The notes below the pieces were generated by a model. It saw only the letters and a list, made by a program, of their open reading frames with translations. It had not been told where the DNA came from and searched no databases. The translations under genes and the position numbers were made by a program. Shown in pieces: positions 23,163-48,054 of a stretch of DNA of 64,000 bases. Source of the DNA: an uncultured Verrucomicrobia subdivision 3 bacterium (lineage in GTDB: Bacteria > Verrucomicrobiota > Verrucomicrobiia > Limisphaerales > UBA11358); assembly GCA_903878805.1 (NCBI GenBank), contig CAIRJF010000014.1, positions 18,426 to 82,425 of the forward strand. The letters are read 5' to 3'. Positions within the stretch are counted from its first letter, which is position 1; each line of letters opens with the position of its first letter.

Positions 23163-24086
23163 TCAGTTGCCGCCGCTGTTAGGAATTTGATTGCCTTGGC
23201 AATCCCAATTGATGTCAGTCCGCGCCGGATCGTAGCCTGCAGGAACGGTTCCGGTTGGGCCGACAACAGTTCCGTCGGAGACGACGTAATTATATTTGAA
23301 ATAGCCGGCATGACCGTCACTAAAGGTAATTTGACCACCTTGATTGTGGCGGGAGGAAAAGCGTGTCGTGTAACATTGCGGCGTAGCCAATGTCGTGGGG
23401 CTGGATCCGGAATACGGTGTTTCGTCCGAACGGTAACGAACGTCGGAGAAAAGCACGAGGGCAGAAGGATGGGCTATCATTTGGGTTTTCAAGGGCAGGC
23501 GCGAAGGTGCACTTAAACTTTCTAAATAGGTGGATTTTGAATTCATTCCATAACTGAACAGCGGGCGAGTTCCAATGTCCATTTGTCCGGCATTCGATTG
23601 ATCCGGCCCATAAACGCCAAGCGCGTAAGCTGTCGGGCAAATAAAAATATTGTGGCCGGTGGACACGGAACCGGAGAACGCCGCCCGGTTTGCACTGAGG
23701 GCGTAAAAATACATTGGTTGACTGGCAACATACGAAGGCAAGGCATTGAACCAAGCATTGTCACCAATGTGGAGATTGACGTGATAAGAGTTGATGTTTT
23801 GCCAAGAAGGAGTGTCTAAATCACTTGAATTGAATTGAGCCGCTGGCTCATATCGGGGATATGGGGAAAATTGGTTGTTGTCCTCAACATACATGCAGGC
23901 GGCCAATCCCCACTGTTTTGAATTGCTCAAGCAGACGGTCTGTTGTGCCTTGGCCTTGGCCTTGGAGAGTGCGGGCAACAGCATCGCGGCGAGGATGGCG
24001 ATGATGGCAATGACCACCAACAATTCAATCAGTGTAAAGCCCTTGCAAAGATTGCTTCTCTTGTCTGAAATATTCTTTTTATCCAT
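23163..24086 (-). CDS. Prepilin-type N-terminal cleavage/methylation domain protein, DUF1559/H-X9-DG-like
   Basis: [31 protein letters not shown]-terminus. C-terminal [18 protein letters not shown]. This family is expanded in Verrucomicrobiota/Planctomycetota. Confidence 0.85.
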
Positions 24087-31859: not shown

Positions 31860-32792
31860 GTGCCAGAATTCATTCACAAACCAGTGATGGCGGCGGAGGT
31901 GCTGGCCGCGCTGAAGCCGCACCCGAACGGGCGATACGCCGACGGGACGCTCGGTGGAGCTGGTCACGCGGCGAGCATTCTGGCCGCGAGTTCGCCGACT
32001 GGATGGCTGTCTGGGTGCGATCGCGATGGCGTCGCTCTTGAGGTAGCGCGCGCGCGGCTGAATGAAAAATTTGCCGGACGGTTTGAATTGCGGCGTGGAA
32101 ATTTTGCAGAACTGGCGGATTGGGTTGCGAAAAAAAGTTGTGACGGCTTGCTGTTGGATTTGGGCGTGAGTTCGCCGCAACTGGATGTCGCCGAACGCGG
32201 GTTCAGTTTCATGCAGGACGGGCCGCTCGATATGCGGATGGATCACCGGCAAAAACTGACCGCCGCCGATTTGGTGAATGGCGAGGACGCGGAACCGCTG
32301 GCGAAAATTTTTTGGGAATACGGCGACGAACGCGATTCGCGCCGGTTTGCGAAAGCGATTGTTCACGACCGCGCTTTGCGAAAATTTGAGACGACGAAGC
32401 AGTTGGCGGATTTGATCGAGCGCCTCGCGCCGAGGCACGGAAAAAAAGCGCATCCGGCGACGAAAGTTTTTCAGGCATTGCGAATCGCAGTGAACGATGA
32501 AATCGGTTCGCTGAAACGTGGTTTGGAAGCGGCGGTGAAAATTTTGAAGCCGGGCGGACGGCTCGCGGTGATCACGTTTCATTCGCTCGAAGATCGTGTG
32601 GTGAAAGAGTTTGGCCGCGAAAAGAGTCGTGATTACACGTTTTCGGGCGAAGTGGACGTGCCGGAATTGCGGACGCCAATCGTGCCGGAATTGAAGTGGG
32701 TTTCGCGCAAGGCGATTTTGCCAAGCGACGAAGAATTGAAAGAAAATCCGCGTGCTCGCAGCGCGCAATTAAGAATTTTGGAGAAAATTTAA
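31860..32792 (+). CDS. rsmH: 16S rRNA (cytosine1402-N4)-methyltransferase RsmH (MraW)
   Basis: HKPVMAAEVL, DGTLGGAGHA, LLLDLGVSSPQLD, FHSLEDRVVK motifs. Confidence 0.9.
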   Translation: MPEFIHKPVMAAEVLAALKPHPNGRYADGTLGGAGHAASILAASSPTGWLSGCDRDGVALEVARARLNEKFAGRFELRRGNFAELADWVAKKSCDGLLLDLGVSSPQLDVAERGFSFMQDGPLDMRMDHRQKLTAADLVNGEDAEPLAKIFWEYGDERDSRRFAKAIVHDRALRKFETTKQLADLIERLAPRHGKKAHPATKVFQALRIAVNDEIGSLKRGLEAAVKILKPGGRLAVITFHSLEDRVVKEFGREKSRDYTFSGEVDVPELRTPIVPELKWVSRKAILPSDEELKENPRARSAQLRILEKI

Positions 32793-32793
32793 G

Positions 32794-33168
32794 ATGGCAA
32801 AGAATCGTAAAAATCAGGCGGCGGCAATCCGGTTTGGGCCGGTATTGAAAGTCGTCTTACTGTGCTCGCTCATCGGCGGCTCGGCGGTCGGCTACGTCTG
32901 GCAGAAGAATGAGATTTATCGGCTCGGTCAGCAGATCCGCCAGCGCGAAACGAAACTCGCGCAGTTGCAGGGCGACAACAAAAGATTTTCCGACCAGATT
33001 TCAATTTTGCATTCGCCGGTGATGCTCGACCAGCGTGCGAAGGAATTGAATCTCGGCCTCGCGCCGGCGACGCCGATGCAAGTTGTGCGGCTGACGGAAA
33101 TGCCGGTCGCACCGGAAAAGAGTTCGCGTCAGTTTGCCCAGCGGCCAGTGACCGAACTCACGCCGTAA
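32794..33168 (+). CDS. ftsL: Cell division protein FtsL-like
   Basis: 124 aa. Single TM followed by a coiled coil (YRLGQQIRQRETKLAQLQGDNKRF). Sits between rsmH and ftsI. Confidence 0.7.
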   Translation: MAKNRKNQAAAIRFGPVLKVVLLCSLIGGSAVGYVWQKNEIYRLGQQIRQRETKLAQLQGDNKRFSDQISILHSPVMLDQRAKELNLGLAPATPMQVVRLTEMPVAPEKSSRQFAQRPVTELTP

Positions 33169-33194
33169 ATAAAAGTTAATTTTGGCCGCCGCTC

Positions 33195-35132
33195 GTGACG
33201 CCGTTGGTTGAGGAACCGATCGCCACGGGCGGCTGGCCGTTTTTTAGGATGACCAACAAACAACAAATTCGCCGCGCGCTGCTGCTGCTCGCCTTTCTTT
33301 CGCTGGCGTTTGGCGGTTTGTGCTACCGGCTCGTGGATTTGCAGGTGTTGCGTCACGACGAATTGAGCGCGGCGGGCGAGAAGAATACTCAGCGCGAATT
33401 CTGGCAGGCACCGCGGCGTGGCGACATTCTCGACGTGAACGGAAATATTCTCGCCACGAGCGTGCCGGTGAAAACGATTTGCGCCGATCCATCGCTGATG
33501 GGGAACTTTCAACCACTGATCGCGCACACGATTGCGCCGCTGCTGAAATTAAATGAAGCGGATTTGGTGAAACGGCTTACACCCTATTTGACACGTAATG
33601 CCAAGGGCGAAGTTGTCACAAATAATCTGCATTACGTCCGGCTGGCTAAAAATATTACCGAAGAAAACTGGCGGCAGGTGGCGGCGGCGATGACGAATCT
33701 CACTTTCGGTGTGGACGTAAAAAAATTGCCCCGTGCGCAAAGGGAATTTGTTCGTAATTTGAAAAACTATTCAGTGTTTTCCGAGCCGGATCAGATGCGT
33801 GTTTATCCGAATGGTTCGCTGGCGTCGCAGGTGATTGGTTTTCCCGCGTCGGAGGAGCAAAAAATCAGCGGGCGGATTGTGACGCAAATCGCCGGTCGCG
33901 ATGGTGTGGAATTGGCGCTGCAAAAACAGTTGAGCGGCGTCGCGGGCTGGAAGGTCACCGAGACGGATCGTGCGCAACATGAGTTGGTCGCCATGCGCGA
34001 CGAGGATGTGCATCCCCGCGACGGTTTGAATGTCGTGCTGACGATTGACTCGGTGGTGCAGCACATCGTGGAGACGGCGCTGACTGACGCGCTGAAAAAA
34101 CATTCGCCGCGGAGCATCACGGGCATCGTCATGCGCCCGAAGACTGGCGAAATTCTGGCGATGGCGTCGCTGCCGAATTACGATCCAAACCAACCGAACA
34201 CCATCACGCCGGAAACGCGCAATCGAGTGATCACCGATGTCGTCGAGCCGGGTTCGACATTTAAGATTGTCGTCGTGTCCGGCGCGTTGAACAACGGCAT
34301 TGTCAGCTTAAACACGCCGGTGTATTGCGAAAATGGTGCGTTCGCGTTTGCTGGTCGCGTGTTGCACGATCATGAACGGCTTGGTAACGAAACGGTGAAA
34401 AGCGTCATCACGAAATCGTCCAACATTGGCGCGGCAAAAATCGGCATTCAACTCGGCGCGGATAATCTTTACAGCTACGCGTGGAATTATGGTTTCGGTC
34501 AGCGCACGGGCATTCCGCTGCCGGGCGAGGCGCGCGGATTTTTGTATCCGGTCAAGGATTGGAGCAAAGTTTCCATCGCGCAGATTCCGATGGGACATGG
34601 CGTCGCGGTGACGCGGTTGCAAATGCTTTACGCCATGGCGTCCATCGCGAATGACGGTTGGCTGATGCGCCCGATGATTGTGAAACAATTGCAAGAACGC
34701 GATGGCTCGGTGGTGCAACGCTACGCGCCGGAGCGCTTGCGCAAAATCATCGGTGAACAAGCAGACTTGGATATGATCACCGCGCTGAAAACTGTGCCTA
34801 CGAAAGATGGCACCGCGCCGGACGCTGCGATGAAAAATTACGTCGTCGCCGGCAAAACCGGCACGGCGCAAAAGGCGGAAAACGGCGCTTACGCCTCGGG
34901 AAAATATATTTCTTCGTTCATCGGATTTTTCCCGGCGGATAATCCGGAATTGTGCATTTCGGTCGTGATGGATGAGCCGAAGGAAGGTTATTACGGCGGC
35001 AAAGTCTGCGGCCCGGTGTTCCGCGACATCGCCGAGCGTTGCGCGAGTTATTTGAACATTCCGCCCGATCCGAATCTGATGACCAACAATCCGTCCGCAT
35101 TCGTTGTGGAAAACGGTGCGCACAAACTTTGA
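33195..35132 (+). CDS. ftsI: Peptidoglycan D,D-transpeptidase FtsI (PBP3, class B PBP)
   Basis: GSTFK (SxxK), KSSNIG (SxN), AGKTGTA (KTG). N-terminal TM. An alternative ATG start lies at 33249. Confidence 0.9.
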   Translation: MTPLVEEPIATGGWPFFRMTNKQQIRRALLLLAFLSLAFGGLCYRLVDLQVLRHDELSAAGEKNTQREFWQAPRRGDILDVNGNILATSVPVKTICADPSLMGNFQPLIAHTIAPLLKLNEADLVKRLTPYLTRNAKGEVVTNNLHYVRLAKNITEENWRQVAAAMTNLTFGVDVKKLPRAQREFVRNLKNYSVFSEPDQMRVYPNGSLASQVIGFPASEEQKISGRIVTQIAGRDGVELALQKQLSGVAGWKVTETDRAQHELVAMRDEDVHPRDGLNVVLTIDSVVQHIVETALTDALKKHSPRSITGIVMRPKTGEILAMASLPNYDPNQPNTITPETRNRVITDVVEPGSTFKIVVVSGALNNGIVSLNTPVYCENGAFAFAGRVLHDHERLGNETVKSVITKSSNIGAAKIGIQLGADNLYSYAWNYGFGQRTGIPLPGEARGFLYPVKDWSKVSIAQIPMGHGVAVTRLQMLYAMASIANDGWLMRPMIVKQLQERDGSVVQRYAPERLRKIIGEQADLDMITALKTVPTKDGTAPDAAMKNYVVAGKTGTAQKAENGAYASGKYISSFIGFFPADNPELCISVVMDEPKEGYYGGKVCGPVFRDIAERCASYLNIPPDPNLMTNNPSAFVVENGAHKL

Positions 35133-35136
35133 GGGT

Positions 35137-35868
35137 ATGAACGAATCACGTCCGCAACTTTTTGGAATGCTCGCCGGATTATTTCTGGCGGCAGGATTGG
35201 TCTGTTCCGCGATGCTCGGCACGAGCGCGTGGGTGAAAATAAAAAACTCGCAGTTTATCAGCGTCAAAGGCTCGGTGCAAAAAGACATTGAATCTGACCT
35301 TGCGATTTGGTCTGGAAGTTTTCTGGTCGAAGGCGAAACGTTGCTCGACGCGCAGCATAAAATTCAGGCGAACCGCGAAATCGTCGGCAAATTTTTGCAC
35401 GATTCGGGCGCGACGGATTACACTTTTACGCCCATTGGCATTGAGGAATTGAAGGCGTCGCAAAAATCCGCCGACGGCTATGTTTCACAACGCACGACTG
35501 GATATCGCCTGACTCAATCCGTTTCCGTCGAGTCCGCTGACGTTGACCGGCTGGACAAGCTCGATTCCACGCCGCTCGTGGAGCAGGGCGTGATTTTCAC
35601 CGTCGCGCCGCCGCAATTTATTTACACCAAGGCGGGCGAAACCAAAATTGAAATGCTGGCCGAGGCGACGAAGGACGCCCGCGCGCGCGCCGAGCAAATC
35701 GCCACGCAAGGCGGTCGCGACATCGCGCGGTTGCACGACGCGGATCAGGGAATTTTTCAGATTACGCCGCAGCACAGTGTTGCGACGAGCTGGCAGGGCG
35801 AGAGCGACACAAGCTCGCGCCAGAAAACCATCACTGCTGTGGTGACCGCGACGTTTTTGTTGAAATAA
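35137..35868 (+). CDS. SIMPL-domain (DUF541) protein, membrane anchored
   Basis: N-terminal TM, then a SIMPL-like pattern (GYRLTQSVSVES...KIEMLAEATKDARARAEQIA). Occupies the slot where murE is usually found. Confidence 0.65.
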   Translation: MNESRPQLFGMLAGLFLAAGLVCSAMLGTSAWVKIKNSQFISVKGSVQKDIESDLAIWSGSFLVEGETLLDAQHKIQANREIVGKFLHDSGATDYTFTPIGIEELKASQKSADGYVSQRTTGYRLTQSVSVESADVDRLDKLDSTPLVEQGVIFTVAPPQFIYTKAGETKIEMLAEATKDARARAEQIATQGGRDIARLHDADQGIFQITPQHSVATSWQGESDTSSRQKTITAVVTATFLLK

Positions 35869-35872
35869 TTTT

Positions 35873-37255
35873 GTGGAAACAAGTTCGTTGAAATTTATTG
35901 CCGAAGCCTGCGGCGCGGAAATTATCGGCGACGCGGCGGGTGTGGAAATTAGTTCCGTCTGCACTGATTCGCGCGCGGCGAAAACGGGTGATTTGTTCTT
36001 TGCCATCACGGGCGGAAAATTTGACGGCCATGATTTCATCAATGAAATCGCGGCGAAAGGTGCGGCGGCGGTCGTCGTGGAAAAGAAAAAACTGCCGGCG
36101 AAACTGCCAGCGTGCGCGGTGCTGGCGGTGGACGATGTCCGCGTTGCGTTTGGAAAATTTGCGACGGCGTATCGGCGGCAATTTCATTTGCCAGTCATCG
36201 CAGTGGGCGGCTCGAATGGCAAGACGACGGTGAAGGAACTCGTCGCATCCGTGCTGCGGCAGAAATTTTCGACGTTGTGGAGCGAGGCGAGTTTTAACAA
36301 CGACATCGGCGTGCCGACGACGTTGTTGCGGCTGAATAAAACGCATCAGGCGGCGGTGCTCGAAGCGGGCACGAATCATCCCGGCGAACTTGCGCCGCTC
36401 GTGAAAATGATTGCGCCGAAGTTTGGTGTCATCACGAACATCGGGCGCGAGCATCTGGAATTTTTTGGCGATGTTGCCGGTGTGGCGCAGGAAGAAGGTT
36501 CGCTGGCGGAACTGTTGCCAGCAGGTGGAAAATTATTCTTGAACGGCGATAGCGAGTGGACGGAAAAAATCGCGGCACGCGCGCAGGCGCAAGTTGTCCG
36601 CGTTGGCATTGGTGAAAAAAACGATTGGTGCGCGAAGAAAATTCGCCTCGATAAAAGCGGTGTGACTTTTCAGGTCGTCACGGCGAACGAAGAATATTGC
36701 GGCGCGTATCGGATTAATTTGCTCGGCCAGCATCAAGTGACGAACGCGCTGTTCGCCGTCGCACTGGGTGCGGAACTGGGACTCGACCGCGCGGAAATTC
36801 AGGATGGACTGGTCGCGTGTCCGCCGCCGAAAATGCGTTTGAATTTTTGGGAAGTCAACGGCGTGCGCGTGCTGGACGACAGTTACAACGCGAATGCGGA
36901 TTCGACCATCGCGGCCTTGGAAACATTGTGCGGATTGCCGTTGCAAGGCCGGCGCGTGGCGGTGCTGGGCGACATGGCGGAACTCGGCGCGCACAGCGCG
37001 GCGGCGCACGCGGAGGTCGGCCGACGAGCGGCGGAATTGAAGCTCGGCCAGTTGTTCGCCATCGGCAAAATGGCGGCGGTGACGGGCAAAGCGGCGCGCG
37101 ACGCGGGGCTGATGCGCGTGTTTGAATTTGCGGAGGTCGAGGCGGCGCTGAATGTGGTGAAAGGTTTTTTGAAGCCGGGCGACGTGGTGTTGTTGAAGGC
37201 GTCGCGCGTATCGCGGTTGGAGCGGATTGCGGAAATGTTGAAGACGGAGAAATAA
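35873..37255 (+). CDS. murF: UDP-N-acetylmuramoyl-tripeptide--D-alanyl-D-alanine ligase
   Basis: GGSNGKTTVKEL P-loop, EAGTNHPGE, DDSYNANADS. 460 aa. GTG start. Confidence 0.9.
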   Translation: METSSLKFIAEACGAEIIGDAAGVEISSVCTDSRAAKTGDLFFAITGGKFDGHDFINEIAAKGAAAVVVEKKKLPAKLPACAVLAVDDVRVAFGKFATAYRRQFHLPVIAVGGSNGKTTVKELVASVLRQKFSTLWSEASFNNDIGVPTTLLRLNKTHQAAVLEAGTNHPGELAPLVKMIAPKFGVITNIGREHLEFFGDVAGVAQEEGSLAELLPAGGKLFLNGDSEWTEKIAARAQAQVVRVGIGEKNDWCAKKIRLDKSGVTFQVVTANEEYCGAYRINLLGQHQVTNALFAVALGAELGLDRAEIQDGLVACPPPKMRLNFWEVNGVRVLDDSYNANADSTIAALETLCGLPLQGRRVAVLGDMAELGAHSAAAHAEVGRRAAELKLGQLFAIGKMAAVTGKAARDAGLMRVFEFAEVEAALNVVKGFLKPGDVVLLKASRVSRLERIAEMLKTEK

Positions 37256-37273
37256 AATGAGAAAATCTGACTT

Positions 37274-37819
37274 ATGAAACTTTCAGAATTACAGCTTTAT
37301 TTACGCGGCAGGTTAGAAACGCTGACTTTCCCAATTGCCACAGACGAACGCAATCGCTGGATTGAGCAACGTCAGCCTGAAATAGAAAATTCGGGCTTTG
37401 GTGAATATCGAACAGTAGATCATTATCACCTTTTTATAAATAGTGACCATGTTGTTGCGTCGCGTCTTTTGAATGATCAAATGCTCAACGTCTCCGATAA
37501 TTACGACGCTCAATGGAAACGACGCGAACAACCGGATTCCAAGACTGGCGAATTTGCGCCTGAATTATGGCGTTTTCGATTTTGGATTACTGGTTGTGAG
37601 CAACCTTTTGAAGTCGCAGATTTAGATGAGCACGATTTCGTCACGATTTCTTGTTCACTGTTAGATTACGAACATCAGGGCAAATCTTATTTGACTCTTA
37701 CAGACGAAGATGGCGAACCAATTTCATTAAGAATTGCAGACGTGATGCTCGCGGCAGGATTTGATTATAGAAATTATGAAATTAAGAACGACGACCCAAA
37801 AATAAGTCGCCTAAACTAG
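37274..37819 (+). CDS. Orphan hypothetical protein, low-GC insert between murF and mraY
   Basis: 181-aa intact ORF. Hand count of its first 60 nt gives 40% GC, versus visibly GC-rich flanks. No recognisable family. Confidence 0.55.
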   Translation: MKLSELQLYLRGRLETLTFPIATDERNRWIEQRQPEIENSGFGEYRTVDHYHLFINSDHVVASRLLNDQMLNVSDNYDAQWKRREQPDSKTGEFAPELWRFRFWITGCEQPFEVADLDEHDFVTISCSLLDYEHQGKSYLTLTDEDGEPISLRIADVMLAAGFDYRNYEIKNDDPKISRLN

Positions 37820-37856
37820 TTCTAGTTCATTGAATTTTTTGCGTTAAAAAATTGAA

Positions 37857-39035
37857 ATGCTTTACCTTTTGAGCCAGCAAATTTTGGACTGGGCGCACGG
37901 CTCCGAATGGGAGTCGCGGCTGGCGTTTTTGCGCCTGTTCAAATACATCACGGTGCGGAGCGCGGGCGCGGCGGTCACGTCGCTGCTGTTGTGCTGGTGG
38001 CTCGGACCGAAAATTATCCGCTGGCTGAAGGATTTGAAATTCGGCCAGGAATACGCGGACAAGGCGGAGGAATCCGGTGTGCGGCACGTCGTGGACAAAA
38101 AAGGCACGCCGACGATGGGCGGAATTTTGATCGTCCTCTCGCTCGTGATTTCGACGATGTTGTGGGCGGAATGGAACGCGCAGGTGGAACTGACGATGCT
38201 GTCGGTTTTGGTGTTGGCAGGCTTGGGTTTTTACGACGACTACGCAAAAATCTTGAAGCAGAGCGGCGGTGGCACGCCGCCGCGCGTGAAGTTGATCACG
38301 CAATTTTCGCTGGCGATTTTTGTGGGAATTTATTTATGGAATCTGCCCGCGACGAGCGAACTGCATTTGCTCGGCGTGAAAAGCGTCTGGCACAGCAATC
38401 TGGTTTCGAGCGTGATGCTGCCGTTTTACAAATACCCGCTGCACGTCGGCGCAATCGTCGGCGTCATCATCGTGGCGCTGGCAATCGTCGGCAGCTCGAA
38501 CGCGGTGAATTTGACGGACGGACTCGACGGTCTCGCGACCGGCTGCACGTTGATCGTGGGATTTGTTTTTTTATTTTTCACCTATCTCGCGGGCAACATC
38601 AAGGCGGCGGCGTATCTGCAAATTCCTTATGTGAGCGGCGCTGGCGAGCTGACGGTTTTTTGCGCAGCGTTGCTGGGCGCGGGGCTGGGATTTTTGTGGT
38701 TTAACTGCCATCCGGCGCAGGTGTTCATGGGCGACACGGGTTCGCTCGCGCTCGGCGGCGCGTTCGGGATCATCGCGGTGTTGATCCATCAGCCGTTTGT
38801 GCTGGTCATCGCGGGTGGCGTATTCGTGGCCGAAGCGGTTTCGGTGATCTTGCAGAAAGGCTGGTTCAAGTTCACGCGCATCCGCACGGGAACAGGCCAA
38901 AGAATTTTTTTGATGGCGCCGCTGCACCATCATTTCCAAAAAAAGGGCTGGCACGAATCGCAGGTGGTGATGCGTTTTTACATTTTGTGCGTGTTATGCG
39001 CGGTCGTGGCGCTGGCGACGCTGAAACTCCGGTGA
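37857..39035 (+). CDS. mraY: Phospho-N-acetylmuramoyl-pentapeptide-transferase
   Basis: GTPTMGG, NAVNLTDGLDGLA, APLHHHF motifs. Polytopic. Confidence 0.9.
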   Translation: MLYLLSQQILDWAHGSEWESRLAFLRLFKYITVRSAGAAVTSLLLCWWLGPKIIRWLKDLKFGQEYADKAEESGVRHVVDKKGTPTMGGILIVLSLVISTMLWAEWNAQVELTMLSVLVLAGLGFYDDYAKILKQSGGGTPPRVKLITQFSLAIFVGIYLWNLPATSELHLLGVKSVWHSNLVSSVMLPFYKYPLHVGAIVGVIIVALAIVGSSNAVNLTDGLDGLATGCTLIVGFVFLFFTYLAGNIKAAAYLQIPYVSGAGELTVFCAALLGAGLGFLWFNCHPAQVFMGDTGSLALGGAFGIIAVLIHQPFVLVIAGGVFVAEAVSVILQKGWFKFTRIRTGTGQRIFLMAPLHHHFQKKGWHESQVVMRFYILCVLCAVVALATLKLR

Positions 39036-39328
39036 AATGAAGATTGTGAATCAACAAAAAAACATCGCTCGGACGCGCTTTGTTGCTTGCGGAAAAGCCG
39101 CGCGGTTGCTAACAATTTCCGTCAGAGCGGCAGGGCGCATGCCGGTCAGCAAGAGTGTTTCACCAGTTCATCTTTCTGCCGGTAATTATTTTCACGACGA
39201 AGTGTCGTCCGGCTCTTAAAACAGGAATATAAATTTAAAGCGTTGCGAAATTTTTCGAGGGAAAGTTCCGCCGCGCCAAACTCAAAAATAAAATTACCTC
39301 GAACTAAAACGCCACCGCACTAAAACAT

Positions 39329-40114
39329 ATGAATAACCCGAATCCATTCGTCCCGAAAGGCTCGCTGCTCGAACAACAAAGCGCGCGCCGTTCCCGTCTC
39401 AAGCTCGCGGTGTTTTGCGTGCTCGCGGTCAGCGTCACCGGCCTCGTTGCCGTGCTCATCCAAGGTTGCAAACGCGAGAAGCCGGCTGATGAAATCCAGC
39501 CGTTGAATCTGGATACAAATTCGGTGGACACCAATCTGCCGACGATGAACGAAGTTTCCAATCCGCCCGTGGTCGTGCCGCCCGTGGCCACGAATCCGCC
39601 GGTGATTGTGCCTCCGGTCGCGCCTGTCCAACCCATCGCGCCCGCCGCTGGTGCCGAATACGTCATCGTCAAGGGCGACACGCTCGCCAAGGTTGCCAAG
39701 AAAAACGGTGTGACGCTCAAAGCGCTTGAAGCCGCGAATCCCGGCGTGGTTCCGACCAAATTGAAAGTCGGCCAGAAGCTTGCCCTGCCCGCTGGCGGCA
39801 GTGTGTCGGCTGATGCCAGCGCTTCGCCAATGGCCGTTGCCGATACCGGCGGCGCAACCTACACGGTGAAGTCCGGCGATACGCTCACGAAAATCGCCAA
39901 GAAAAACGGCACGACCGTCAAAGCCATCGAAGCGGCGAACGGTCTGACCACGACCAAAATCAAGGTCGGCCAGAAATTAAAAATTCCGTCGAAGGGCGAA
40001 GCTGCCGCGCCCGTTGCGCCCGCGCCGGTGGTGGACACTGCGCCCGCACCCGCGTTGCCGCCGGTTCCCGCGCCCGCTCCGGCGACGACTGCGCCCGCAC
40101 CGGCGCAGCAGTAA
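39329..40114 (+). CDS. Membrane-anchored protein with two LysM domains and Pro/Ala-rich linkers
   Basis: TM segment (LAVFCVLAVSVTGLVAVLI). LysM 1: YVIVKGDTLAKVAKKNGVTLKALEAANP...VGQKLALP. LysM 2: YTVKSGDTLTKIAKKNGTTVKAIEAANG...VGQKLKIP. Occupies the usual murD slot. Confidence 0.8.
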   Translation: MNNPNPFVPKGSLLEQQSARRSRLKLAVFCVLAVSVTGLVAVLIQGCKREKPADEIQPLNLDTNSVDTNLPTMNEVSNPPVVVPPVATNPPVIVPPVAPVQPIAPAAGAEYVIVKGDTLAKVAKKNGVTLKALEAANPGVVPTKLKVGQKLALPAGGSVSADASASPMAVADTGGATYTVKSGDTLTKIAKKNGTTVKAIEAANGLTTTKIKVGQKLKIPSKGEAAAPVAPAPVVDTAPAPALPPVPAPAPATTAPAPAQQ

Positions 40115-40152
40115 GCCGCCGGTTTGCGCGGCCGGATTTTTGAAAAGTTGAA

Positions 40153-41307
40153 ATGAAAGTCGCCGTCACCATTCTGGCCTTTTGCGTCACCAGCCTCCTC
40201 GCGCTGGGTCTGGTGATGCTTTACAGCTCCAGCATGGTGATGGTGGATAAGCGGACCAATTCCGAAATCGGCGCGCACATGCTCCAGATGCAACTGATCT
40301 GGTGCGCTCTAGGATTTATCGCCTGCGTCACGCTGGCTTCGCTCGACTACCAAATCCTAAAAAAATTCGCCTTGCCGGTTTTCGCCGGTTCGTTGTTTCT
40401 CGCCGCGCTGGTATTTGTGCCGCACCTTGGCATCAACCTCAACGGCGCGCACCGCTGGATTCGCCTGCCGGGCGCCACGTTTCAACCGTCAGAGATGGTC
40501 AAAATCGCCCTCATCATCATGCTCGCGTGGTATGGCGATTATTCGCAGCGGAAAATGAACACTATCAAGCGCGGCATCATCGTTCCCGGAATGATCATCG
40601 CGTTCGCGCTCGGCTTGATTTTTATTGAACCCGATCGCGGCACGACCATTCTGCTCGCGGCGGTCAGCGGCACGATGCTGATGATTGCGGGCGTCCGCTG
40701 GCTGCACGTCATTCCGCCGGTGTTGCTCGCGGCGGCGGCGCTGGTTTATTCGCTCATGCACGACTCCATGCGCAGCGGCCGCATCACCGCGTGGCTCCAT
40801 CCCGAGGCGCACGCCGGCGGCGCGGCGTTGCAGGCGGAGCAGGCCAAAATCGCCATCGGCTCCGGCGGACTCACCGGCCTAGGCCTCGGCGACGGCATGC
40901 AAAAGCACGGTTTCCTGCCGGAAATCCAAAGCGATTTTATTTTCGCCAACATCGGCGAAGAACTCGGTCTCGTCGCCACGCTGCTTGTTGTTCTCGCGTT
41001 TCTCGTCATCACCATTTGCGGACTCTTCATCGCGTTGCGCGCGCGCGACCAGTTCGGCTGCCTGCTCGCGGTCGGCGTGACTTCGCTGATCAGTTATCAG
41101 GCCATCATCAACATCGGCGTCGTCACCAGCTTGCTGCCGAACAAGGGACTCGCGCTGCCGTTCATCAGCGCCGGCGGCTCCAGTTTACTCGCGATGCTGA
41201 TGGGCGTCGGGATTTTGTTCAGCATCGCGCGGCAGGCCGTGCCCGCAAAAATTTCCGCCTCCGACTTTGTCGCGAACGACAATCCCTTTGCCGCCAAGGC
41301 AGCATGA
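40153..41307 (+). CDS. ftsW: SEDS-family peptidoglycan glycosyltransferase FtsW
   Basis: 384 aa, polytopic. INLNGAHRWIRLPGATFQPSEMVK and GLALPFISAGGSS motifs. Confidence 0.85.
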   Translation: MKVAVTILAFCVTSLLALGLVMLYSSSMVMVDKRTNSEIGAHMLQMQLIWCALGFIACVTLASLDYQILKKFALPVFAGSLFLAALVFVPHLGINLNGAHRWIRLPGATFQPSEMVKIALIIMLAWYGDYSQRKMNTIKRGIIVPGMIIAFALGLIFIEPDRGTTILLAAVSGTMLMIAGVRWLHVIPPVLLAAAALVYSLMHDSMRSGRITAWLHPEAHAGGAALQAEQAKIAIGSGGLTGLGLGDGMQKHGFLPEIQSDFIFANIGEELGLVATLLVVLAFLVITICGLFIALRARDQFGCLLAVGVTSLISYQAIINIGVVTSLLPNKGLALPFISAGGSSLLAMLMGVGILFSIARQAVPAKISASDFVANDNPFAAKAA

Positions 41308-42482
41308 ATTCCTCCGCCAACGAGAAACCCCTCATCGCCATCGCGTGTGGCGGCACGGGCGGACACCTCTTTCCCGGTCTCGCCGTCGCCCGGCAATTGC
41401 AGGCGCGCGGCTGCGACGTTGCGCTACTGATCTCGCCCAAGGAAGTGGATCAGCAAGCCGTGAAATCCGCGTCTGGCCTGGAAATTCTCACCCTTCCCGC
41501 CGTCGGTTTGCAGAACCGCAATTATTTTTCCTTTGCCAAAAGTTTCTGGAGTTCCTTCCGCGCCGCGCAGAAATTTTTCAAGCAACGCCAACCCGCCGCC
41601 GTGCTCGCGATGGGCGGATTCACCAGCGCGCCGCCGGTTTTCGCCGCGAAATTTTGCGGCGAAAAAACTTTTCTGCATGAGTCTAACACCATTCCCGGCC
41701 GCGCCAACCGGTTGCTCGCGCGCTTTGTGGACATGGCGTTTATTGGGTTTCCCGAAAGCGCCGCGCGCCTGCGCGCCCAAAAAACTGTTGTCACCGGCAC
41801 GCCAGTTCGCCCGCAGTTTTCAGAATGCAGAATACTGAATCCAGAATCCAACCGCCGCGCGCTCGGCCTTGATCCAAACTCGCCGGTGATTCTCATTGTC
41901 GGCGGCAGCCAGGGCGCGCGCGGCTTGAATGACCTGATTTTATCCGCGCTGCCGTTGCTCCAAAACCGTGGCTGGCAATTTCTACATCTCACTGGCGCAA
42001 GCGATTTTGAAAGAGTAAATGCCGCCTACGCAGCGAACGGAATCAAAGCAATCGTCAAACCGTTTATGGTGGAAATGAATATGGCGCTGGGCGCGGCGAC
42101 GGCGTGCATCAGTCGTTCCGGTGCGTCATCCTTGGCCGAAATGGCGGCGATGCGCTTGCCTTCGCTGCTCGTTCCGCTGCCGACGGCAGCGGACAACCAC
42201 CAATATTTCAACGCGCTCGCGTTTGATAAAACCGGCGCGGCAAAATTGTTGGAACAAAAATCATCGCCGGAAAAAGTGGCCGCGATGCTCGCCGAAATTG
42301 TCGGCGACGCAACCGCGCGGCAACAAATCCAATCCGCGCTGGCGCAATGGCATGCGCCCGGAGCGGCGGCGGAAATTGCCCAAAACATTTTGAACGCGCT
42401 GGGAGAAAAGTCCTCCGTCGTTCCCAAAAGCGGTCAGCAAACCGGAATGAAGGGTGAGCTGAATTTGAAAGTTGTCGCATGA
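41304..42482 (+). CDS. murG: UDP-N-acetylglucosamine--N-acetylmuramyl-(pentapeptide) pyrophosphoryl-undecaprenol GlcNAc transferase
   Basis: IAIACGGTGGHLFPGLAVA N-terminus, VGGSQGA. ATGA overlap with the ftsW stop. The upstream in-frame extension to 40791 is antisense-like junk. Confidence 0.9.
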   Translation: MNSSANEKPLIAIACGGTGGHLFPGLAVARQLQARGCDVALLISPKEVDQQAVKSASGLEILTLPAVGLQNRNYFSFAKSFWSSFRAAQKFFKQRQPAAVLAMGGFTSAPPVFAAKFCGEKTFLHESNTIPGRANRLLARFVDMAFIGFPESAARLRAQKTVVTGTPVRPQFSECRILNPESNRRALGLDPNSPVILIVGGSQGARGLNDLILSALPLLQNRGWQFLHLTGASDFERVNAAYAANGIKAIVKPFMVEMNMALGAATACISRSGASSLAEMAAMRLPSLLVPLPTAADNHQYFNALAFDKTGAAKLLEQKSSPEKVAAMLAEIVGDATARQQIQSALAQWHAPGAAAEIAQNILNALGEKSSVVPKSGQQTGMKGELNLKVVA

Positions 42483-43429
42483 CGCTGGCCGCTGACATTT
42501 CTGAGATGCCAACGCCAAACAAAAATAATTTTGCCGGTGAACTCGCTGCCTTGGTTTTGCCTGCGACCGTCTTCCGGCGCGACGAGCCGATGGCGAAGCA
42601 CACGACGCTGCGCGTCGGCGGGCCGGCGGATGTTTATGTCGAGCCGGCGTCGGAAGCTGATTTGGCCTTGATTTTACAATGGTGCAGCGAGCGTGGTGTG
42701 AATTTTTTTATTCTGGGACGCGGTTCAAATTTGCTGGTGCGCGATGGCGGTTTTCGCGGTGTGGTGATCTGTCTGTCGTTACCAGAATTTTCGCGGATTG
42801 AAATCGATGGCACCCGCATCCGTGCAGGAGCCGGCGCCAAACAGAAAAATGTCGCGGTTGAGGCGAAGCGCAACGGCTTGAGCGGCGTGGAATTTTTGGA
42901 AGGTATTCCCGGCAGCATCGGCGGCGCGCTGCGCATGAATGCGGGCGCGATGGGCGGCGAGACTTTTAATGCGGTTGAATCGGTGCGCGTGATGGATTTC
43001 GGCGGAAACATTTCTGAATTATCGCCGGCAGAAATGTCGGTGGCGTATCGCAGTTGCGCGACGTTGAAAAATCTCATCGCGTTGAGCGCGGTGTTTCAAT
43101 GCAAACCGGAGCCGCGCGAGGAAATTGAAAAGCGCATGAAGGCATATAGCGAAAAGCGCTGGAGTTCCCAGCCAGCAGCGCCGAGCGCGGGTTGCATGTT
43201 CAAAAATCACGTAACGATTCCAGCGGGCAAACTGATCGACGAACTCGGCTTGAAAAACACCAGGATCGGCGGCGCGCGGATTTCGCTGGAGCATGGAAAT
43301 TTCCTGGTGAATGACGGCGGCGCGACGGCGAAGGATGTGCTGGAATTGATTGGGATTTTGCGGGCGAAGGCGAAAGCGGAGCGCGGCATTGATTTGCATA
43401 CGGAAGTGGAAATTGTAGGCGAAGATTGA
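42479..43429 (+). CDS. murB: UDP-N-acetylenolpyruvoylglucosamine reductase
   Basis: HTTLRVGGPADVYVEP, GRGSNLLV, AGCMFKN. ATGA overlap with murG. Confidence 0.9.
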   Translation: MTLAADISEMPTPNKNNFAGELAALVLPATVFRRDEPMAKHTTLRVGGPADVYVEPASEADLALILQWCSERGVNFFILGRGSNLLVRDGGFRGVVICLSLPEFSRIEIDGTRIRAGAGAKQKNVAVEAKRNGLSGVEFLEGIPGSIGGALRMNAGAMGGETFNAVESVRVMDFGGNISELSPAEMSVAYRSCATLKNLIALSAVFQCKPEPREEIEKRMKAYSEKRWSSQPAAPSAGCMFKNHVTIPAGKLIDELGLKNTRIGGARISLEHGNFLVNDGGATAKDVLELIGILRAKAKAERGIDLHTEVEIVGED

Positions 43430-43463
43430 TTGACAACCAAAGTGGTTCCGTTATGGTTGCGTC

Positions 43464-43658
43464 ATGATAAGCATCACCATCAAGGGCATACCCAAGGAAA
43501 CTCACCGGGAGTTAAAAAAACGGGCAGCGGCGCACCGGCGGAGCTTAAACAGCGAAGTGATTTGGGTTTTGGAATCAACTTTGGGTGGCGTGCCGGAAGC
43601 CGTCCACAGACTTCAACCACTGGAAAAAACGGACAAGAAACTTGCGCGAAAAAAGTGA
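43464..43658 (+). CDS. Ribbon-helix-helix, FitA/Arc-type antitoxin-like small protein (no cognate toxin adjacent)
   Basis: MISITIKGIPKETHRELKKRAAAHRRSLNSEVIWVLES is the typical FitA-like RHH N-terminus. Its stop TGA 43656-43658 overlaps the ddl GTG at 43655. Confidence 0.6.
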   Translation: MISITIKGIPKETHRELKKRAAAHRRSLNSEVIWVLESTLGGVPEAVHRLQPLEKTDKKLARKK

Positions 43659-44647
43659 GTGAAAAATTAAAAATTACGGTCATGCTCGGCGGACCGAGCG
43701 CGGAACGCGAAGTTTCCCTGCGCTCCGGTGCGGCGGTGGCGGCGGCATTGCGGTCGCTTGGTCACACGGTCAGTGAACTCGACCCGCGCACGCCGGACTG
43801 GGTTTTACCTGCGTCGACGGACGTGGTTTTTCTTGCGCTGCACGGAACGTATGGCGAGGACGGCGCGGTGCAAAAGCAGTTGGAAAAACTAGGTGTGCCT
43901 TACACCGGCTGCGATGCCGAGGCGAGCCGCATTGCCTTCGACAAGGTGCTGACCAAGCAATGCTGCATCGAGGCGGGCGTGCCGACGGCGAAATTTGTGG
44001 CGGTGCATTCGGCGGCGGCGGATTTTCCCGGCAACCTTTCGCTGCCGCTGGTGGTCAAGCCGACGCGGCAGGGGTCAAGCGTAGGCCTGCAATTTGTCGA
44101 GCGCGGCGAGGACTGGCCGACGGCGCTCGCGGTAGCGCTGCAATTTGATTCGGAAGTTCTGGTCGAGGAAAAAATCATTGGTCGCGAGACAACGGTGGGA
44201 ATTCTCGGCGGAAAAGTTTTGCCGGTGGTCGAAGTGCGGCCAAAGGCGGGCAGCTACGATTACGCCAACAAATACACCGCCGGCGCGACGGAATATTTTT
44301 GCCCGGCGGATTTTGACGCGGCGACGACCAAAAATATTCAAGCCGCCGCGCTCGGCGCGTTTCGCGCGATTGGCGGACGCGACTATGCGCGGGTGGACGT
44401 GATGGTGCGCGCGGATGGCGCGCCGGTGGTGCTGGAGGTGAACACGCTGCCGGGCATGACCGAGACCAGTTTGCTGCCCAAAGCGGCGGCGGCGGCGGGT
44501 TTGAGCTATGCCGAACTTTGCCAGCGCATGATTGAACTGGCTTTGGATAGAAAAAGTTTTGCACCGAGCCGCCGGCAAATCTCTGCCACCAGAGTTTCCA
44601 ACTCCGGTTTTATCAGTGCGGCTTTGCGGCTCTGTGGTTTTGTGTGA
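43655..44647 (+). CDS. ddl: D-alanine--D-alanine ligase
   Basis: KITVMLGGPSAEREVSLRSG, ALHGTYGEDG, EVNTLPGMT. GTG 43655 is preferred over the upstream in-frame extension to 43430, which is basic and low complexity. Confidence 0.88.
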   Translation: MSEKLKITVMLGGPSAEREVSLRSGAAVAAALRSLGHTVSELDPRTPDWVLPASTDVVFLALHGTYGEDGAVQKQLEKLGVPYTGCDAEASRIAFDKVLTKQCCIEAGVPTAKFVAVHSAAADFPGNLSLPLVVKPTRQGSSVGLQFVERGEDWPTALAVALQFDSEVLVEEKIIGRETTVGILGGKVLPVVEVRPKAGSYDYANKYTAGATEYFCPADFDAATTKNIQAAALGAFRAIGGRDYARVDVMVRADGAPVVLEVNTLPGMTETSLLPKAAAAAGLSYAELCQRMIELALDRKSFAPSRRQISATRVSNSGFISAALRLCGFV

Positions 44648-44653
44648 AAAACT

Positions 44654-45616
44654 ATGTGGTTCAAGCGCGAACAAAATAAAAACCGCCGGCTGCACCGCCA
44701 TCATGTGCTGGACGTGAAGCTGCGCTCCGACCAGGTGCAGGCGACTCGGCTGCGGCTGGCGCTGCTTGCGCTGATGGTTCCGCTTATCACCGTGCTGGCG
44801 CTGTATCTCGTGTGGCGCGTCGGCGAGGCGACGCTCAATGCTTTTGTTTACGACAACGCTGATTTTGCCATCTTGCAGATTGACGTGCAGACGGACGGCG
44901 TGATCGCGCCGGATCAGTTGCGCCGTTGGACCGGCGTGAAGCCGGGGGCAAACCTCATCGCCCTCGACCTCGCGGCGGTGAAGCGCAACCTCGAACTGGT
45001 CTCGCTGATTGATTCGGTTTCCGTCGAACGCGTGCTGCCGCGCACGTTGCGAATCCGCGTGACGGAGCGCGACCCGATTGCGCAGGTCAATGTGCCGCGC
45101 GCGGATGGCGCGAACGGTATTGCTGTTTCCGTTTTTCAACTCGACGCGGACGGCATGGTGATGCAGCCGCTTGACCCGCGGCTTTGCACGGTTCCGCTGG
45201 CGCAGATGAACTCGGAGTTGCCGGTTATCGAAGGTGTCAATGCGTTTCAATTGCAGCCGGGTCGGCGCATAGAATTGGCGCAGGTGCAGGCGGCGGTGCA
45301 GTTGATCGCCGCGTTTGCGAAATCGCCGATGGCGGGGCTGGTGGATTTGCGGCGCGTGGATGTTTCCGCGCCGGGCGTGCTGGTGGCGACGACGGAGCAG
45401 GGCAGCGTGGTCACTTTCGGCCTCGACCGTTTCGACCAGCAATTGCAGCGCTGGCGGCAGATTTATGATTTGGGACTGCGCCAGCAGCGGGCGATTGGAT
45501 CGGTGGATTTGGCGGTGGCGAACAATGTGCCGGTGCGTTGGATGCTGGCCAGCGCCGCGCCGGCGGGCGGGCTGCCCAAGGCGGTGAAACCTAAAAACCG
45601 GAGAAAAAATGTTTGA
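44654..45616 (+). CDS. ftsQ: Cell division protein FtsQ (POTRA domain)
   Basis: N-terminal TM and a POTRA-like region (LRIRVTERDPIAQV). Sits between ddl and ftsA. Confidence 0.75.
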   Translation: MWFKREQNKNRRLHRHHVLDVKLRSDQVQATRLRLALLALMVPLITVLALYLVWRVGEATLNAFVYDNADFAILQIDVQTDGVIAPDQLRRWTGVKPGANLIALDLAAVKRNLELVSLIDSVSVERVLPRTLRIRVTERDPIAQVNVPRADGANGIAVSVFQLDADGMVMQPLDPRLCTVPLAQMNSELPVIEGVNAFQLQPGRRIELAQVQAAVQLIAAFAKSPMAGLVDLRRVDVSAPGVLVATTEQGSVVTFGLDRFDQQLQRWRQIYDLGLRQQRAIGSVDLAVANNVPVRWMLASAAPAGGLPKAVKPKNRRKNV

Positions 45617-46832
45617 CGATTCCAACATCATTGCCGGCCTCGAAATTGGCACTTCGAAAATCTGCATCGTTGTCGGCGAGCAGAATGCCGACGGCGCGCT
45701 GAACATCATTGGCCTCGGCCAGGCGCGCTCGCGCGGCGTGCGCAAGGGCGAAATCTGCAACACCGAGCAGGTCGAGGAAGATTTGCGCGCGGCCATCTTC
45801 GAGGCCGAGCAGATGGCCGATGTGGAAATCCGCAGTGTTTATCTGGGCGTGAGCGGCGGACATATTCGCGGTTTCAACAATCGCGGCGTGCATCCGGTGG
45901 TTTCCGCCGACCGCGAAATTTCGCAGGACGATGTTGATGACGTGGTGAAAAATGCGAAGGCCATTAATTTGCCCGCCGAGAACACGATTATTAACCACGT
46001 CCGCCAGCATTTTTATGTGGACGGGCAGGACGGCGTGACAAATCCCGTCGGGATGCTCGGCGCGCGGCTGGAAGTGGACATGCACGTCATCCACGGCCAC
46101 GCCAACCGGCTCCAGAATGTCATCCGCCTCGTTCGCGCGACTTCGCTTACGGTGGACGATGTGGTCTTCAACGGCGTTGCCACATCGCTCGCGCTGTTGA
46201 CGAATGAGCAGAAGGAACTCGGCGCGCTCGTCATTGACATTGGCGGCGGCACGACGGAATTCGTCGCGTATTCCGACGGCATCATCCGGCATTCCGGCGT
46301 GCTGGCGGTCGGCGGCGACCATGTTTCCAACGATCTGGCCTACGGTCTGAAAGTGCCGTTGAGCCGCGCAGAAAAATTGAAGCTGGAACACGGCACTGCG
46401 ATTCCCACCGAGGCCGGGCGCGGCCAGACCATCAGCATCACCAACGAACTTGGCCTCGAACTCAAGCGCATCAATGTCGAGCATCTCCAGAAAATCATGT
46501 CGCTGCGGCTCGAGGAAATTTTCCAGCTCATTGCGCAGGACTTGGAGCAGGCCGGGCTGACCGATTACATGCGCGCCGGCGTTTTTCTCTGCGGCGGCGG
46601 CTCGCGGGTGCGCGGCCTCGTGCCGCTGGCGGAAAATGTTTTTCAAATGAACGTCACGCCCGGCCATGCTTGTGCCGTGAGCGGGCTGACGGCGGCGCTT
46701 GACCAGCCGGAATTTGCCGCCGCCATCGGCCTAGTGAAATACGGCTCGCTGCGCAACCGCAGCCGCAGCGCGCGACCGTCATTCGTGACCGGCATCAAAG
46801 GCGTGTTCGGAAAATTGCTGCCGCGCAACTGA
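45609..46832 (+). CDS. ftsA: Cell division protein FtsA
   Basis: Actin-fold motifs GLEIGTSKICIVVGE, VIDIGGGTTEF, GVFLCGGGS. Confidence 0.9.
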   Translation: MFDDSNIIAGLEIGTSKICIVVGEQNADGALNIIGLGQARSRGVRKGEICNTEQVEEDLRAAIFEAEQMADVEIRSVYLGVSGGHIRGFNNRGVHPVVSADREISQDDVDDVVKNAKAINLPAENTIINHVRQHFYVDGQDGVTNPVGMLGARLEVDMHVIHGHANRLQNVIRLVRATSLTVDDVVFNGVATSLALLTNEQKELGALVIDIGGGTTEFVAYSDGIIRHSGVLAVGGDHVSNDLAYGLKVPLSRAEKLKLEHGTAIPTEAGRGQTISITNELGLELKRINVEHLQKIMSLRLEEIFQLIAQDLEQAGLTDYMRAGVFLCGGGSRVRGLVPLAENVFQMNVTPGHACAVSGLTAALDQPEFAAAIGLVKYGSLRNRSRSARPSFVTGIKGVFGKLLPRN

Positions 46833-46836
46833 AAGG

Positions 46837-48054
46837 TTGAACATGGAAAATCAACATCCGCTTTTTGAAACGCCGGAAATTTCCGGCCAGCCCTCCGTGC
46901 GCATCATCGCCGTCGGCAATGCCGGCGACGCGTTGCTCGGCGCGCTCTCCACGACGGAATTTGCCGGTGCGGCATTCGCCGCCATCAACACCGATGCCGC
47001 CGCGCTCGCCGCATCCTCCGCCAAGGTGAAGATCCATCTCGAAAATAAATTATTCCGCGGCCTCGGTTCCGGCGGCGACCCCGAACGCGGCAAGGCGCTC
47101 GCCGAAGAACAATTTTCCATGCTCAAATCCGCCTGCGAAGGTGCGAACGTCGTTTTCATCCTCGCCGGTCTCGGTGGCGGCGCGGGTAGTGGGATTTCGC
47201 CGGTGCTGGCCAAAGCCGCGCACGAAGCTGGCGCGCTCGTGCTGGCGTTCGTCACGCTGCCGTTCGAATGCGAAGGCAACCGCCGCGAAGCGCAGGCGCA
47301 GACCGCGTTGGAACAATTAAAATCCGCCGCCGACGGCGTCATCTGTTTGCCGAGCCAGAAAATTTTCAAGCTCATTGACGAGAACTCCACCCTCGTCGAA
47401 ACCTTCCGAGTCACCGGCGGATTTCTCACCGAAGGCGTGCGCGGCGTGTGGTCGCTGCTCTCGCGGCCGGGGATTATTCCCGTTCACTTTGGCGATCTGT
47501 GCCAGTTGCTCCGCGACCGCCATGCGGAAAACGCCTTTGCCTTTGTCGAAGCCTCCGGGCCGGGGCGCGCGCGTGAAGTGGTGGAAAAAATTCTCAACCA
47601 TCCGCTGCTTGACGAAGGCCGCGCCCTCGCGGAATCCGATGCCGTGCTCGTGAGTCTGACGGCGGGCAAAGATTTGACCATGGCCGAGATCAACCGCGTG
47701 ATGGAACAGGTCAAGCGCCAGTGCGTGCACGCCCAGATTGTCATGGGCGCCTCGGCGGATGCGGGTTTGCAGGATAAACTCTGCGTCACCATCATCGCTG
47801 CGCGCCAGAATGCCGCCAGCAGTGTGACCCCGCGGGCGGAGAGCCACAGCGCGACCGCCACTGCCACCCACTCGCATCGGGAACCGGCGTTGCCGCGCCA
47901 GCGCAAACGCGGGACGGTGGCCAAAGCGGTGCAGGGACAACTGCCGTTGACGATTATCTCCAAAGGCCGGTTCGACAAGAGCGAACCGACGTTGCATCGC
48001 GGCGAAGATCTGGACATCCCGACCTTTATCCGCCGCGGCGTGGCAATGAATTAA
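46837..48054 (+). CDS. ftsZ: Cell division protein FtsZ (divergent)
   Basis: Tubulin/FtsZ fold is recognisable (AINTDAAAL, GLGSGGDPERG, AGLGGGAGSG, LPFECEGNRR). C-terminal DLDIPTFIRRG anchor peptide. Last gene of the dcw cluster. Several GTP-contact motifs are altered (see findings). Confidence 0.8.
   Translation: MNMENQHPLFETPEISGQPSVRIIAVGNAGDALLGALSTTEFAGAAFAAINTDAAALAASSAKVKIHLENKLFRGLGSGGDPERGKALAEEQFSMLKSACEGANVVFILAGLGGGAGSGISPVLAKAAHEAGALVLAFVTLPFECEGNRREAQAQTALEQLKSAADGVICLPSQKIFKLIDENSTLVETFRVTGGFLTEGVRGVWSLLSRPGIIPVHFGDLCQLLRDRHAENAFAFVEASGPGRAREVVEKILNHPLLDEGRALAESDAVLVSLTAGKDLTMAEINRVMEQVKRQCVHAQIVMGASADAGLQDKLCVTIIAARQNAASSVTPRAESHSATATATHSHREPALPRQRKRGTVAKAVQGQLPLTIISKGRFDKSEPTLHRGEDLDIPTFIRRGVAMN

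Follow-up and report, generated by a model that had tools for sequence, protein, structure and literature searches.

An ftsZ gene closing a complete dcw cluster

We analyzed a 64,000-nucleotide stretch of contig CAIRJF010000014.1 (assembly GCA_903878805.1, positions 18,426 to 82,425, hereafter the window) from an uncultured Verrucomicrobia subdivision 3 bacterium, and focused on its ftsZ gene, which closes a complete division and cell wall (dcw) cluster ending in the order ftsQ-ftsA-ftsZ (Table 1). The same placement of ftsZ after ftsQ-ftsA at the dcw 3′ end is found in relatives at loci L081, L082 and L085. The encoded protein matches the Pfam families Tubulin (PF00091, 1.8e-32) and FtsZ_C (PF12327, 1.4e-17), and it scores 243.3 bits against the NCBIfam model TIGR00065 ftsZ, under the curated equivalog cutoff of 295.2 bits. 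An AlphaFold2 (AF2) model with a mean predicted local distance difference test (pLDDT) score of 63 matched FtsZ structures with TMt values of 0.77-0.84 (~0.8), and the best structural matches were all FtsZ. A preliminary description of this DNA had called the gene an FtsZ directly following ftsA, and the Pfam matches, fold and dcw context bear this out. We conclude that the gene is the orthologous dcw-cluster division ftsZ of Verrucomicrobia subdivision 3 (Limisphaerales), a soil and freshwater lineage.

The possibility that the gene encodes BtubA/B or a eukaryote-type tubulin was ruled out, as the C-terminal domain is FtsZ_C, the structural matches are FtsZ and there is no paired tubulin-family open reading frame (ORF) nearby. 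A scan of the window and of 85 flanking loci (+/-10 kb) turned up no second tubulin-family ORF. Reading on from the TGA stop of ftsA, the sequence runs AAGG, TTG (46837), AAC and ATG (46843) (window 46830-46845). Because the AAGG lies 6 nt upstream of ATG 46843 and a database protein identical to the window FtsZ (P0001) has 403 aa, the real start is probably ATG 46843 with AAGG as the ribosome-binding site.

Table 1. Position of ftsZ, its motifs and its dcw neighbors in the window, and of three strongly altered dcw FtsZs at other loci (amino acids counted from the TTG; substitutions in E. coli FtsZ numbering)
Feature	Position	Strand	Details
Rest of dcw cluster	31860..45616	+	mraW, ftsL/DivIC-like, ftsI, SIMPL, Mur ligase, 181-aa ORF, mraY, LysM protein, ftsW, murG, murB, ddl, ftsQ
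ftsA	45609..46832	+	directly upstream of ftsZ; stop 4 nt before the ftsZ TTG
ftsZ ORF	46837..48054	+	405 aa from TTG; likely real start ATG 46843, giving 403 aa
T1 loop and H1 start	46909..46938	+	aa 25-34 AVGNAGDALL vs B. subtilis GVGGGGNNAV; G17A, G20N, G21A, G23D, N24A
T2 loop	46987..47001	+	aa 51-55 NTDAA; Mg2+-water ligands N43 and D45 retained; Q47A
T3 loop	47062..47082	+	aa 76-82 LGSGGDP; A70S, A72G, N73D
T4 tubulin signature	47167..47193	+	aa 111-119 GLGGGAGSG vs GMGGGTGTG; T108A, T110S; glycines all kept
T5/T6 segment	47347..47361	+	aa 171-175 LPSQK vs IPNDR; N165S, D166Q
Helix H7	47404..47427	+	aa 190-197 FRVTGGFL vs FREADNVL; stacking F182 kept; N186G, D187G
T7 synergy loop	47467..47499	+	aa 211-221 PGIIPVHFGDL vs PGLINLDFADV; N207P, D209H; D212 kept
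Variable disordered C-terminal linker	47812..47922	+	aa 326-362; pLDDT <50
Conserved C-terminal module	47926..48051	+	aa 364-405 QGQLPLTIISKGRFDKSEPTLHRGEDLDIPTFIRRGVAMN; FtsA-binding peptide and upstream lineage-specific motif
Extreme dcw FtsZ P0241	L085 10001-11401		directly after ftsA
Extreme dcw FtsZ P0164	L083 872-2206		directly after ftsA
Extreme dcw FtsZ P0201	L084 830-2143		directly after ftsA

Substitutions in the nucleotide site and the T7 loop

Substitutions are numbered after E. coli FtsZ, verified against PDB entries. A phmmer search against all PDB chains aligned residues 10-356 with B. subtilis FtsZ, and this alignment has no gap in T1, T4, T5/T6, H7 or T7; aligning the protein with E. 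coli FtsZ in MAFFT gave an identical mapping. The preliminary description had listed changes in T1, the tubulin signature, the IPNDKLL segment, H7 and T7 from an alignment made by eye; since the phmmer alignment is gap-free through these motifs, the hand alignment was correctly registered and an error of register is rejected. Each listed change was reproduced by both alignments, and no canonical residue appears at a substituted position. The list was incomplete, as it had missed the T3 changes (A70S, A72G, N73D) and Q47A.

In place of the tubulin signature G-G-G-T-G-[ST]-G the window FtsZ reads GGGAGSG, and in place of the T7 consensus N-x-D-x-x-D it reads P-V-H-F-G-D, with the last Asp alone retained. 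The guanine-reading residues N24, N165 and N186/D187 are replaced by A32, S173 and G194/G195 (window numbering), with the stacking F190 kept. Ala replaces Q47, the residue that partners N207 and the K+ site on the adjoining subunit (PMC8936486).

The canonical FtsZs of E. coli, B. subtilis and S. aureus share with the window protein the two-domain fold, the post-ftsA dcw position and the FtsA-binding peptide, along with the glycine-rich phosphate loops, N43/D45, E138, R142, F182 and D212. Core identity is only 34%, however, compared with 54% for the E. coli-B. subtilis pair. Where canonical FtsZs carry GGGTGTG, N-V-D-F-A-D and Q47, the window protein carries GGGAGSG, a T7 of the form P/Q-V-H-F-x-D and Ala at 47; it has also lost N24, N165 and N186/D187 and has an extra conserved C-terminal motif.

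Two of the altered elements, the T1 sequence G-N-A-G and the signature Ser, resemble the tubulin sequences GQ[AC]G and GGGTGSG. Tubulin carries these sequences and binds and hydrolyzes GTP, so this pattern by itself is no evidence of lost GTP binding. Unlike the window FtsZ, tubulin keeps its base-reading Asn residues; the window protein also differs in having FtsZ_C rather than tubulin_C and no heterodimer partner nearby. A precedent for a T7 substitution that gives a non-hydrolyzing interface is found in beta-tubulin, where Lys stands in place of the catalytic Glu.

Structural and mutant studies of model FtsZs have assigned roles to several of the replaced residues. N165 hydrogen-bonds guanine and H7 recognizes the base (PMC8456036). 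In S. aureus FtsZ, N25 hydrogen-bonds GDP, T109 contacts a gamma-phosphate mimic, Q48 and N208 form an inter-subunit K+ site, and the catalytic Asp that swings is D210; the substitutions N208L, D210N and D213N suppress assembly (PMC8936486). E. coli FtsZ T108A, which has the same Thr-to-Ala change in the signature as the window protein, has almost no GTPase activity; given GTP and Mg2+ it can still assemble rings, and these are static, with almost no subunit turnover and without treadmilling (PMC5979038). In that mutant a single change was engineered into an otherwise canonical protein, whereas in the window protein it occurs naturally, is fixed and stands alongside many further changes. The preliminary description had asked whether this FtsZ hydrolyzes GTP normally, and the question is justified by the near absence of GTPase in E. 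coli T108A (PMC5979038) and by the abolished assembly of S. aureus D210N and N208L (PMC8936486).

Conservation across the clade

The best 120 database relatives of the window FtsZ are 73-100% identical to it, and searching GTDB with a single genome for each species returned 259 relatives. The best 80 of these 259 came from 80 different assemblies labeled Verrucomicrobia subdivision 3, Limisphaerales or Verrucomicrobiia, with one match per assembly. Residue counts were made on 201 clade members and the entropy analysis on 196 distinct clade sequences. The substituted residues are fixed or close to fixation: A21 is found in 198 members, A108 in 194, S110 in 199, Q166 in 195, G186 in 186 and G187 in 171. 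His occupies position 209 in 201/201, D212 is kept in 198 and F182 in 201. Position 207 is Gln in 192/201 members, so that the Pro of the window protein is a rare local variant. Sequencing noise is rejected as a source of the substitutions because the same changes occur in about 200 independent relatives.

The entropy analysis separates the elements of the nucleotide site. Those that hold the phosphates, ribose and Mg2+ are invariant (entropy 0 at G19, G22, G103, G105, G107, G109, G111, E138, R142 and F182), N43, D45 and G71 are nearly so, and G72 and D73 in T3 are invariant; T1 positions 20 and 24 vary. The base-reading positions 24, 165 and 187 fall in the 75th-95th percentile of variability and are filled by small residues, with A/T/S seen at 24, S/N/C/G at 165 and G/E/N/S at 187. 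Of the residues for the gamma-phosphate and hydrolysis, none of T108, Q47, N207 and D209 is kept, position 209 being an invariant His, and D212, R142 and G71 are retained. The longitudinal-interface hydrophobics L178 and L272 of E. coli correspond to a near-invariant L186 and M282 in the clade proteins. Co-loss between positions suggests two modules of substituted positions, 47/108/207/209 and 24/165/186, in statistics that ignore phylogeny.

A burst of change followed by purifying selection

Against seven relatives, the FtsZ core has a ratio of nonsynonymous to synonymous substitution rates (dN/dS) of 0.09-0.15, equal to that of ftsA, ftsQ, ddl and murB when the same pairs of genomes are compared. 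The C-terminal linker is looser, with values of about 0.13-0.3. Over 200 relatives have an intact ORF, which, together with the dN/dS of ~0.1 and the fixation of the new residues, led us to reject a pseudogene or decaying gene.

Within the clade the rate of divergence is the same for the FtsZ core as for FtsA. We also compared the window proteins with those at locus L082, where the nearest near-canonical orthologue (P0125, with T4 GGGTGTG and T7 GLINVDFNDL) likewise follows ftsA; here the FtsZ core is 53% identical, compared with 67% for FtsA and 74% for Ddl. The pattern is one of a burst of change on the clade stem followed by stasis, the signature of a functional shift. The word "degenerate," which the preliminary description had used for the motifs, is misleading in this light, as purifying selection acts on an order-level clade in which the new residues are fixed or near-fixed, and the site is remodeled and not decaying.

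Range among verrucomicrobial FtsZs

Verrucomicrobial FtsZs have been described as the most divergent bacterial FtsZs (PMC9871819; PMC1845146), and we found them to be 25-42% identical in the core to the FtsZ of E. coli or B. subtilis, with the latter two 54% identical to each other. In 119 Verrucomicrobiales FtsZs (P0300-P0417) the T7 loop reads GLIRIGMDDLL, with D209G in 119/119, an extra Asp at 211, and mostly Arg at both 207 and 47. These proteins have in common with the window FtsZ the changes G21A, A72G/N73D, M104L and T110S, a non-canonical T7 and a replaced Q47. They differ in having Gly at 209 and a canonical nucleotide-binding side, with G20, N24, T108, N165, D166 and D186 retained (n=119), whereas the window clade is without those residues and has His at 209. 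In the Verrucomicrobiales member V. spinosum, ftsZ is essential and division is by ordinary binary fission (PMC12283558). A non-canonical T7 is thus phylum-wide in Verrucomicrobia and compatible with an essential FtsZ, and the loss of nucleotide-side residues is what sets the window clade apart.

How extreme this FtsZ is relative to others of the Planctomycetes-Verrucomicrobia-Chlamydiae (PVC) group had been left undecided in the preliminary description. Its nucleotide side is more altered than that of Verrucomicrobiales, and 8 of 23 key residues are changed, within a range of 0-12 among the 125 nearest full-length representatives of 50%-identity clusters. The window FtsZ is therefore in the mid-to-upper part of a wider radiation and is neither unique nor its most extreme member.

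At the far end of this range are P0241, P0164, P0178 and P0201, which share with the window FtsZ the post-ftsA position, the C-terminal module and H209 or another non-Asp residue in T7. They have lost 9-12 of the 23 key residues, including T4 glycines, F182 or D212, all of which the window protein keeps. The tubulin signature in these neighbors is destroyed (e.g. GLGGRTGTE, with G107R and G111E), and F182 or D212 is lost in some. As judged from these residues, the extreme FtsZs probably cannot bind nucleotide and are candidates for a nucleotide-free FtsZ. NCBI records list several verrucomicrobial FtsZs (P0273, P0303, P0359 and P0379) under the name "hypothetical protein," in keeping with the sub-cutoff TIGR00065 score of the window protein.

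The C-terminal module

The preliminary description had also reported an intact FtsA-binding peptide, and this held: the canonical peptide EDLDIPTFIRRG is present at aa 390-401 and is invariant in the clade, which predicts FtsA binding. A second near-invariant motif lies upstream of it, and together they read (LPLxIxS)KGRF(D/E)K(S/T)EPT..x.GEDLD.PTF.RR in the window protein and in P0125-P0192 and P0262/P0353/P0376. The GRF(D/E)K.EPT core is common to Limisphaerales-type and Verrucomicrobiales FtsZs, the latter sharing the module of the window protein as GRF(D/E)K.EPT...GEDLD.P.F.R, whereas the FtsZs of E. coli and B. subtilis lack this core. The upstream motif is intact even in FtsZs with destroyed GTPase motifs.

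Other features of the window

Several further features were observed in and around the dcw cluster. A 181-aa ORF at 37274-37819 (+), between the Mur ligase gene and mraY, has a third-position GC of 0.35 compared with ~0.7 in its neighbors and no Pfam match, and it may be a non-coding spacer or a foreign insertion in the cluster. A SIMPL/DUF541 gene (35104-35868, +) and a gene for a protein with two LysM domains (39329-40114, +) are embedded in the cluster; the LysM gene also precedes ftsW in the L081 and L082 clusters and appears to be a lineage-specific dcw member. Elsewhere, a 920-aa protein (55635-58397, -) consists almost wholly of about nine immunoglobulin-type (Ig_3 / I-set) domains. A 1499-aa protein (24322-28821, +), encoded in a lower-GC stretch (0.49-0.54), carries three Shr-like haem-binding (HID) domains, and its gene is adjoined by one (23163-24086, -) for a protein whose N-terminal methylation motif resembles that of type IV pilins.

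Discussion

We suggest, at somewhat better than even odds, that the window gene encodes a division FtsZ in which nucleotide binding persists but the base is poorly read and hydrolysis is slow or different, so that the protein may work with scarcely any GTP turnover, or none. The nucleotide site would have been remodeled in the burst on the clade stem and held since then by purifying selection. The protein would still bind nucleotide, with a relaxed base specificity, and still form head-to-tail filaments with FtsA as their membrane anchor. GTP hydrolysis, and hence subunit turnover and treadmilling, would be much slower or would proceed by a different chemistry based on His217 and Asp220 (window numbering), and slow or altered hydrolysis would make the filaments less dynamic.

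Several considerations weigh against this proposal. S110, the invariant H209, and the retained D212 and R142 could jointly restore a normal GTPase. The S. aureus D210N and N208L phenotypes, if transferred literally, would predict a dead protein, which is contradicted by the strong purifying selection; the mechanism in this clade would therefore be compensated or different, and the phenotypes of model-organism mutants clearly do not transfer to it one to one. In addition, confidence in the AF2 model is only moderate, and the model carries no ligand information.

The proposal has to be set against a fully competent GTPase, specific for GTP and working at a normal rate, in which the substitutions are compensated and the changes are neutral or lineage-specific. 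Strong purifying selection fits such an enzyme, as does the invariant retention of H209, D212, R142, N43, D45 and all glycine-loop residues. T1 G-x-A-G and S110 are also found in tubulin, which binds and hydrolyzes GTP (Ser in the signature: PMC1845146), and Verrucomicrobiales FtsZs are also without N207 and D209 in an order where V. spinosum has an essential ftsZ and divides by ordinary binary fission (PMC12283558). We nonetheless consider a competent GTPase unlikely, given that T108A alone removes the GTPase of E. coli FtsZ (PMC5979038), that the T7/H2 K+ contact has lost Q47 on one side and N207 on the other, and that all three polar guanine readers are lost. The positions of these readers are variable and have not been refixed, which argues against a new specific mode of recognition. 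This variability bears equally on a switch of specificity, in which the pocket would be retuned to ATP or another nucleotide and not merely relaxed: the loss of N24, N165 and N186/D187 beside a kept stacking Phe and kept phosphate and ribose contacts is what such a switch would leave, yet the replaced positions vary within the clade and no new base-reading residue is fixed, and we regard a switch as improbable.

A similarly low probability attaches to a nucleotide-free scaffold, that is, a pseudo-GTPase acting as a structural adaptor through the conserved C-terminal module and FtsA. Neighboring lineages at the same dcw position do have a destroyed signature (GLGGRTGTE, G107R/G111E) with the C-terminal module kept, and across the radiation this module is better conserved than the GTPase motifs. 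The window clade, however, keeps the glycines G19, G22 and G103-G111 together with E138, R142, N43, D45 and F182, which would be unexpected for an empty pocket. It is most improbable that the protein is a specialized paralogue with a derived accessory role while a second, canonical FtsZ elsewhere drives division, as the gene occupies the ancestral post-ftsA position, like its near-canonical and its more extreme relatives, the 80 best GTDB loci come from 80 different assemblies with one match each, and no other tubulin-family ORF was found in the window or the 85 flanking loci.

In the literature searched, the coverage of which was incomplete, we found only general statements of divergence and no prior account of a clade-wide loss of T108, the guanine readers and D209 in subdivision 3/Pedosphaera FtsZ. 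We offer tentatively, as a broader idea that we hold to be less likely true than false, that the sole divisome FtsZ in subdivision 3 and its neighbors has been freed from GTP-specific binding and fast hydrolysis and would serve as a slow or static FtsA-tethered scaffold. The graded erosion from near-canonical proteins through the window type to those with a destroyed signature could then represent a living intermediate toward the FtsZ-free division of Planctomycetes and Chlamydiae.

In current models GTP hydrolysis drives FtsZ treadmilling, which distributes septal cell-wall synthesis. The only visible divisome FtsZ of a widespread lineage, with a natural T108A and without the swinging Asp or the guanine readers, would test the universality of the requirement for hydrolysis. 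Because FtsZs of this clade fall below curated hidden Markov model cutoffs and are sometimes named "hypothetical," surveys of FtsZ presence can miss them, and presence/absence surveys may under-count Verrucomicrobia. The graded FtsZ variants at one genomic position also form a set of proteins with which to ask how the PVC superphylum could lose FtsZ.

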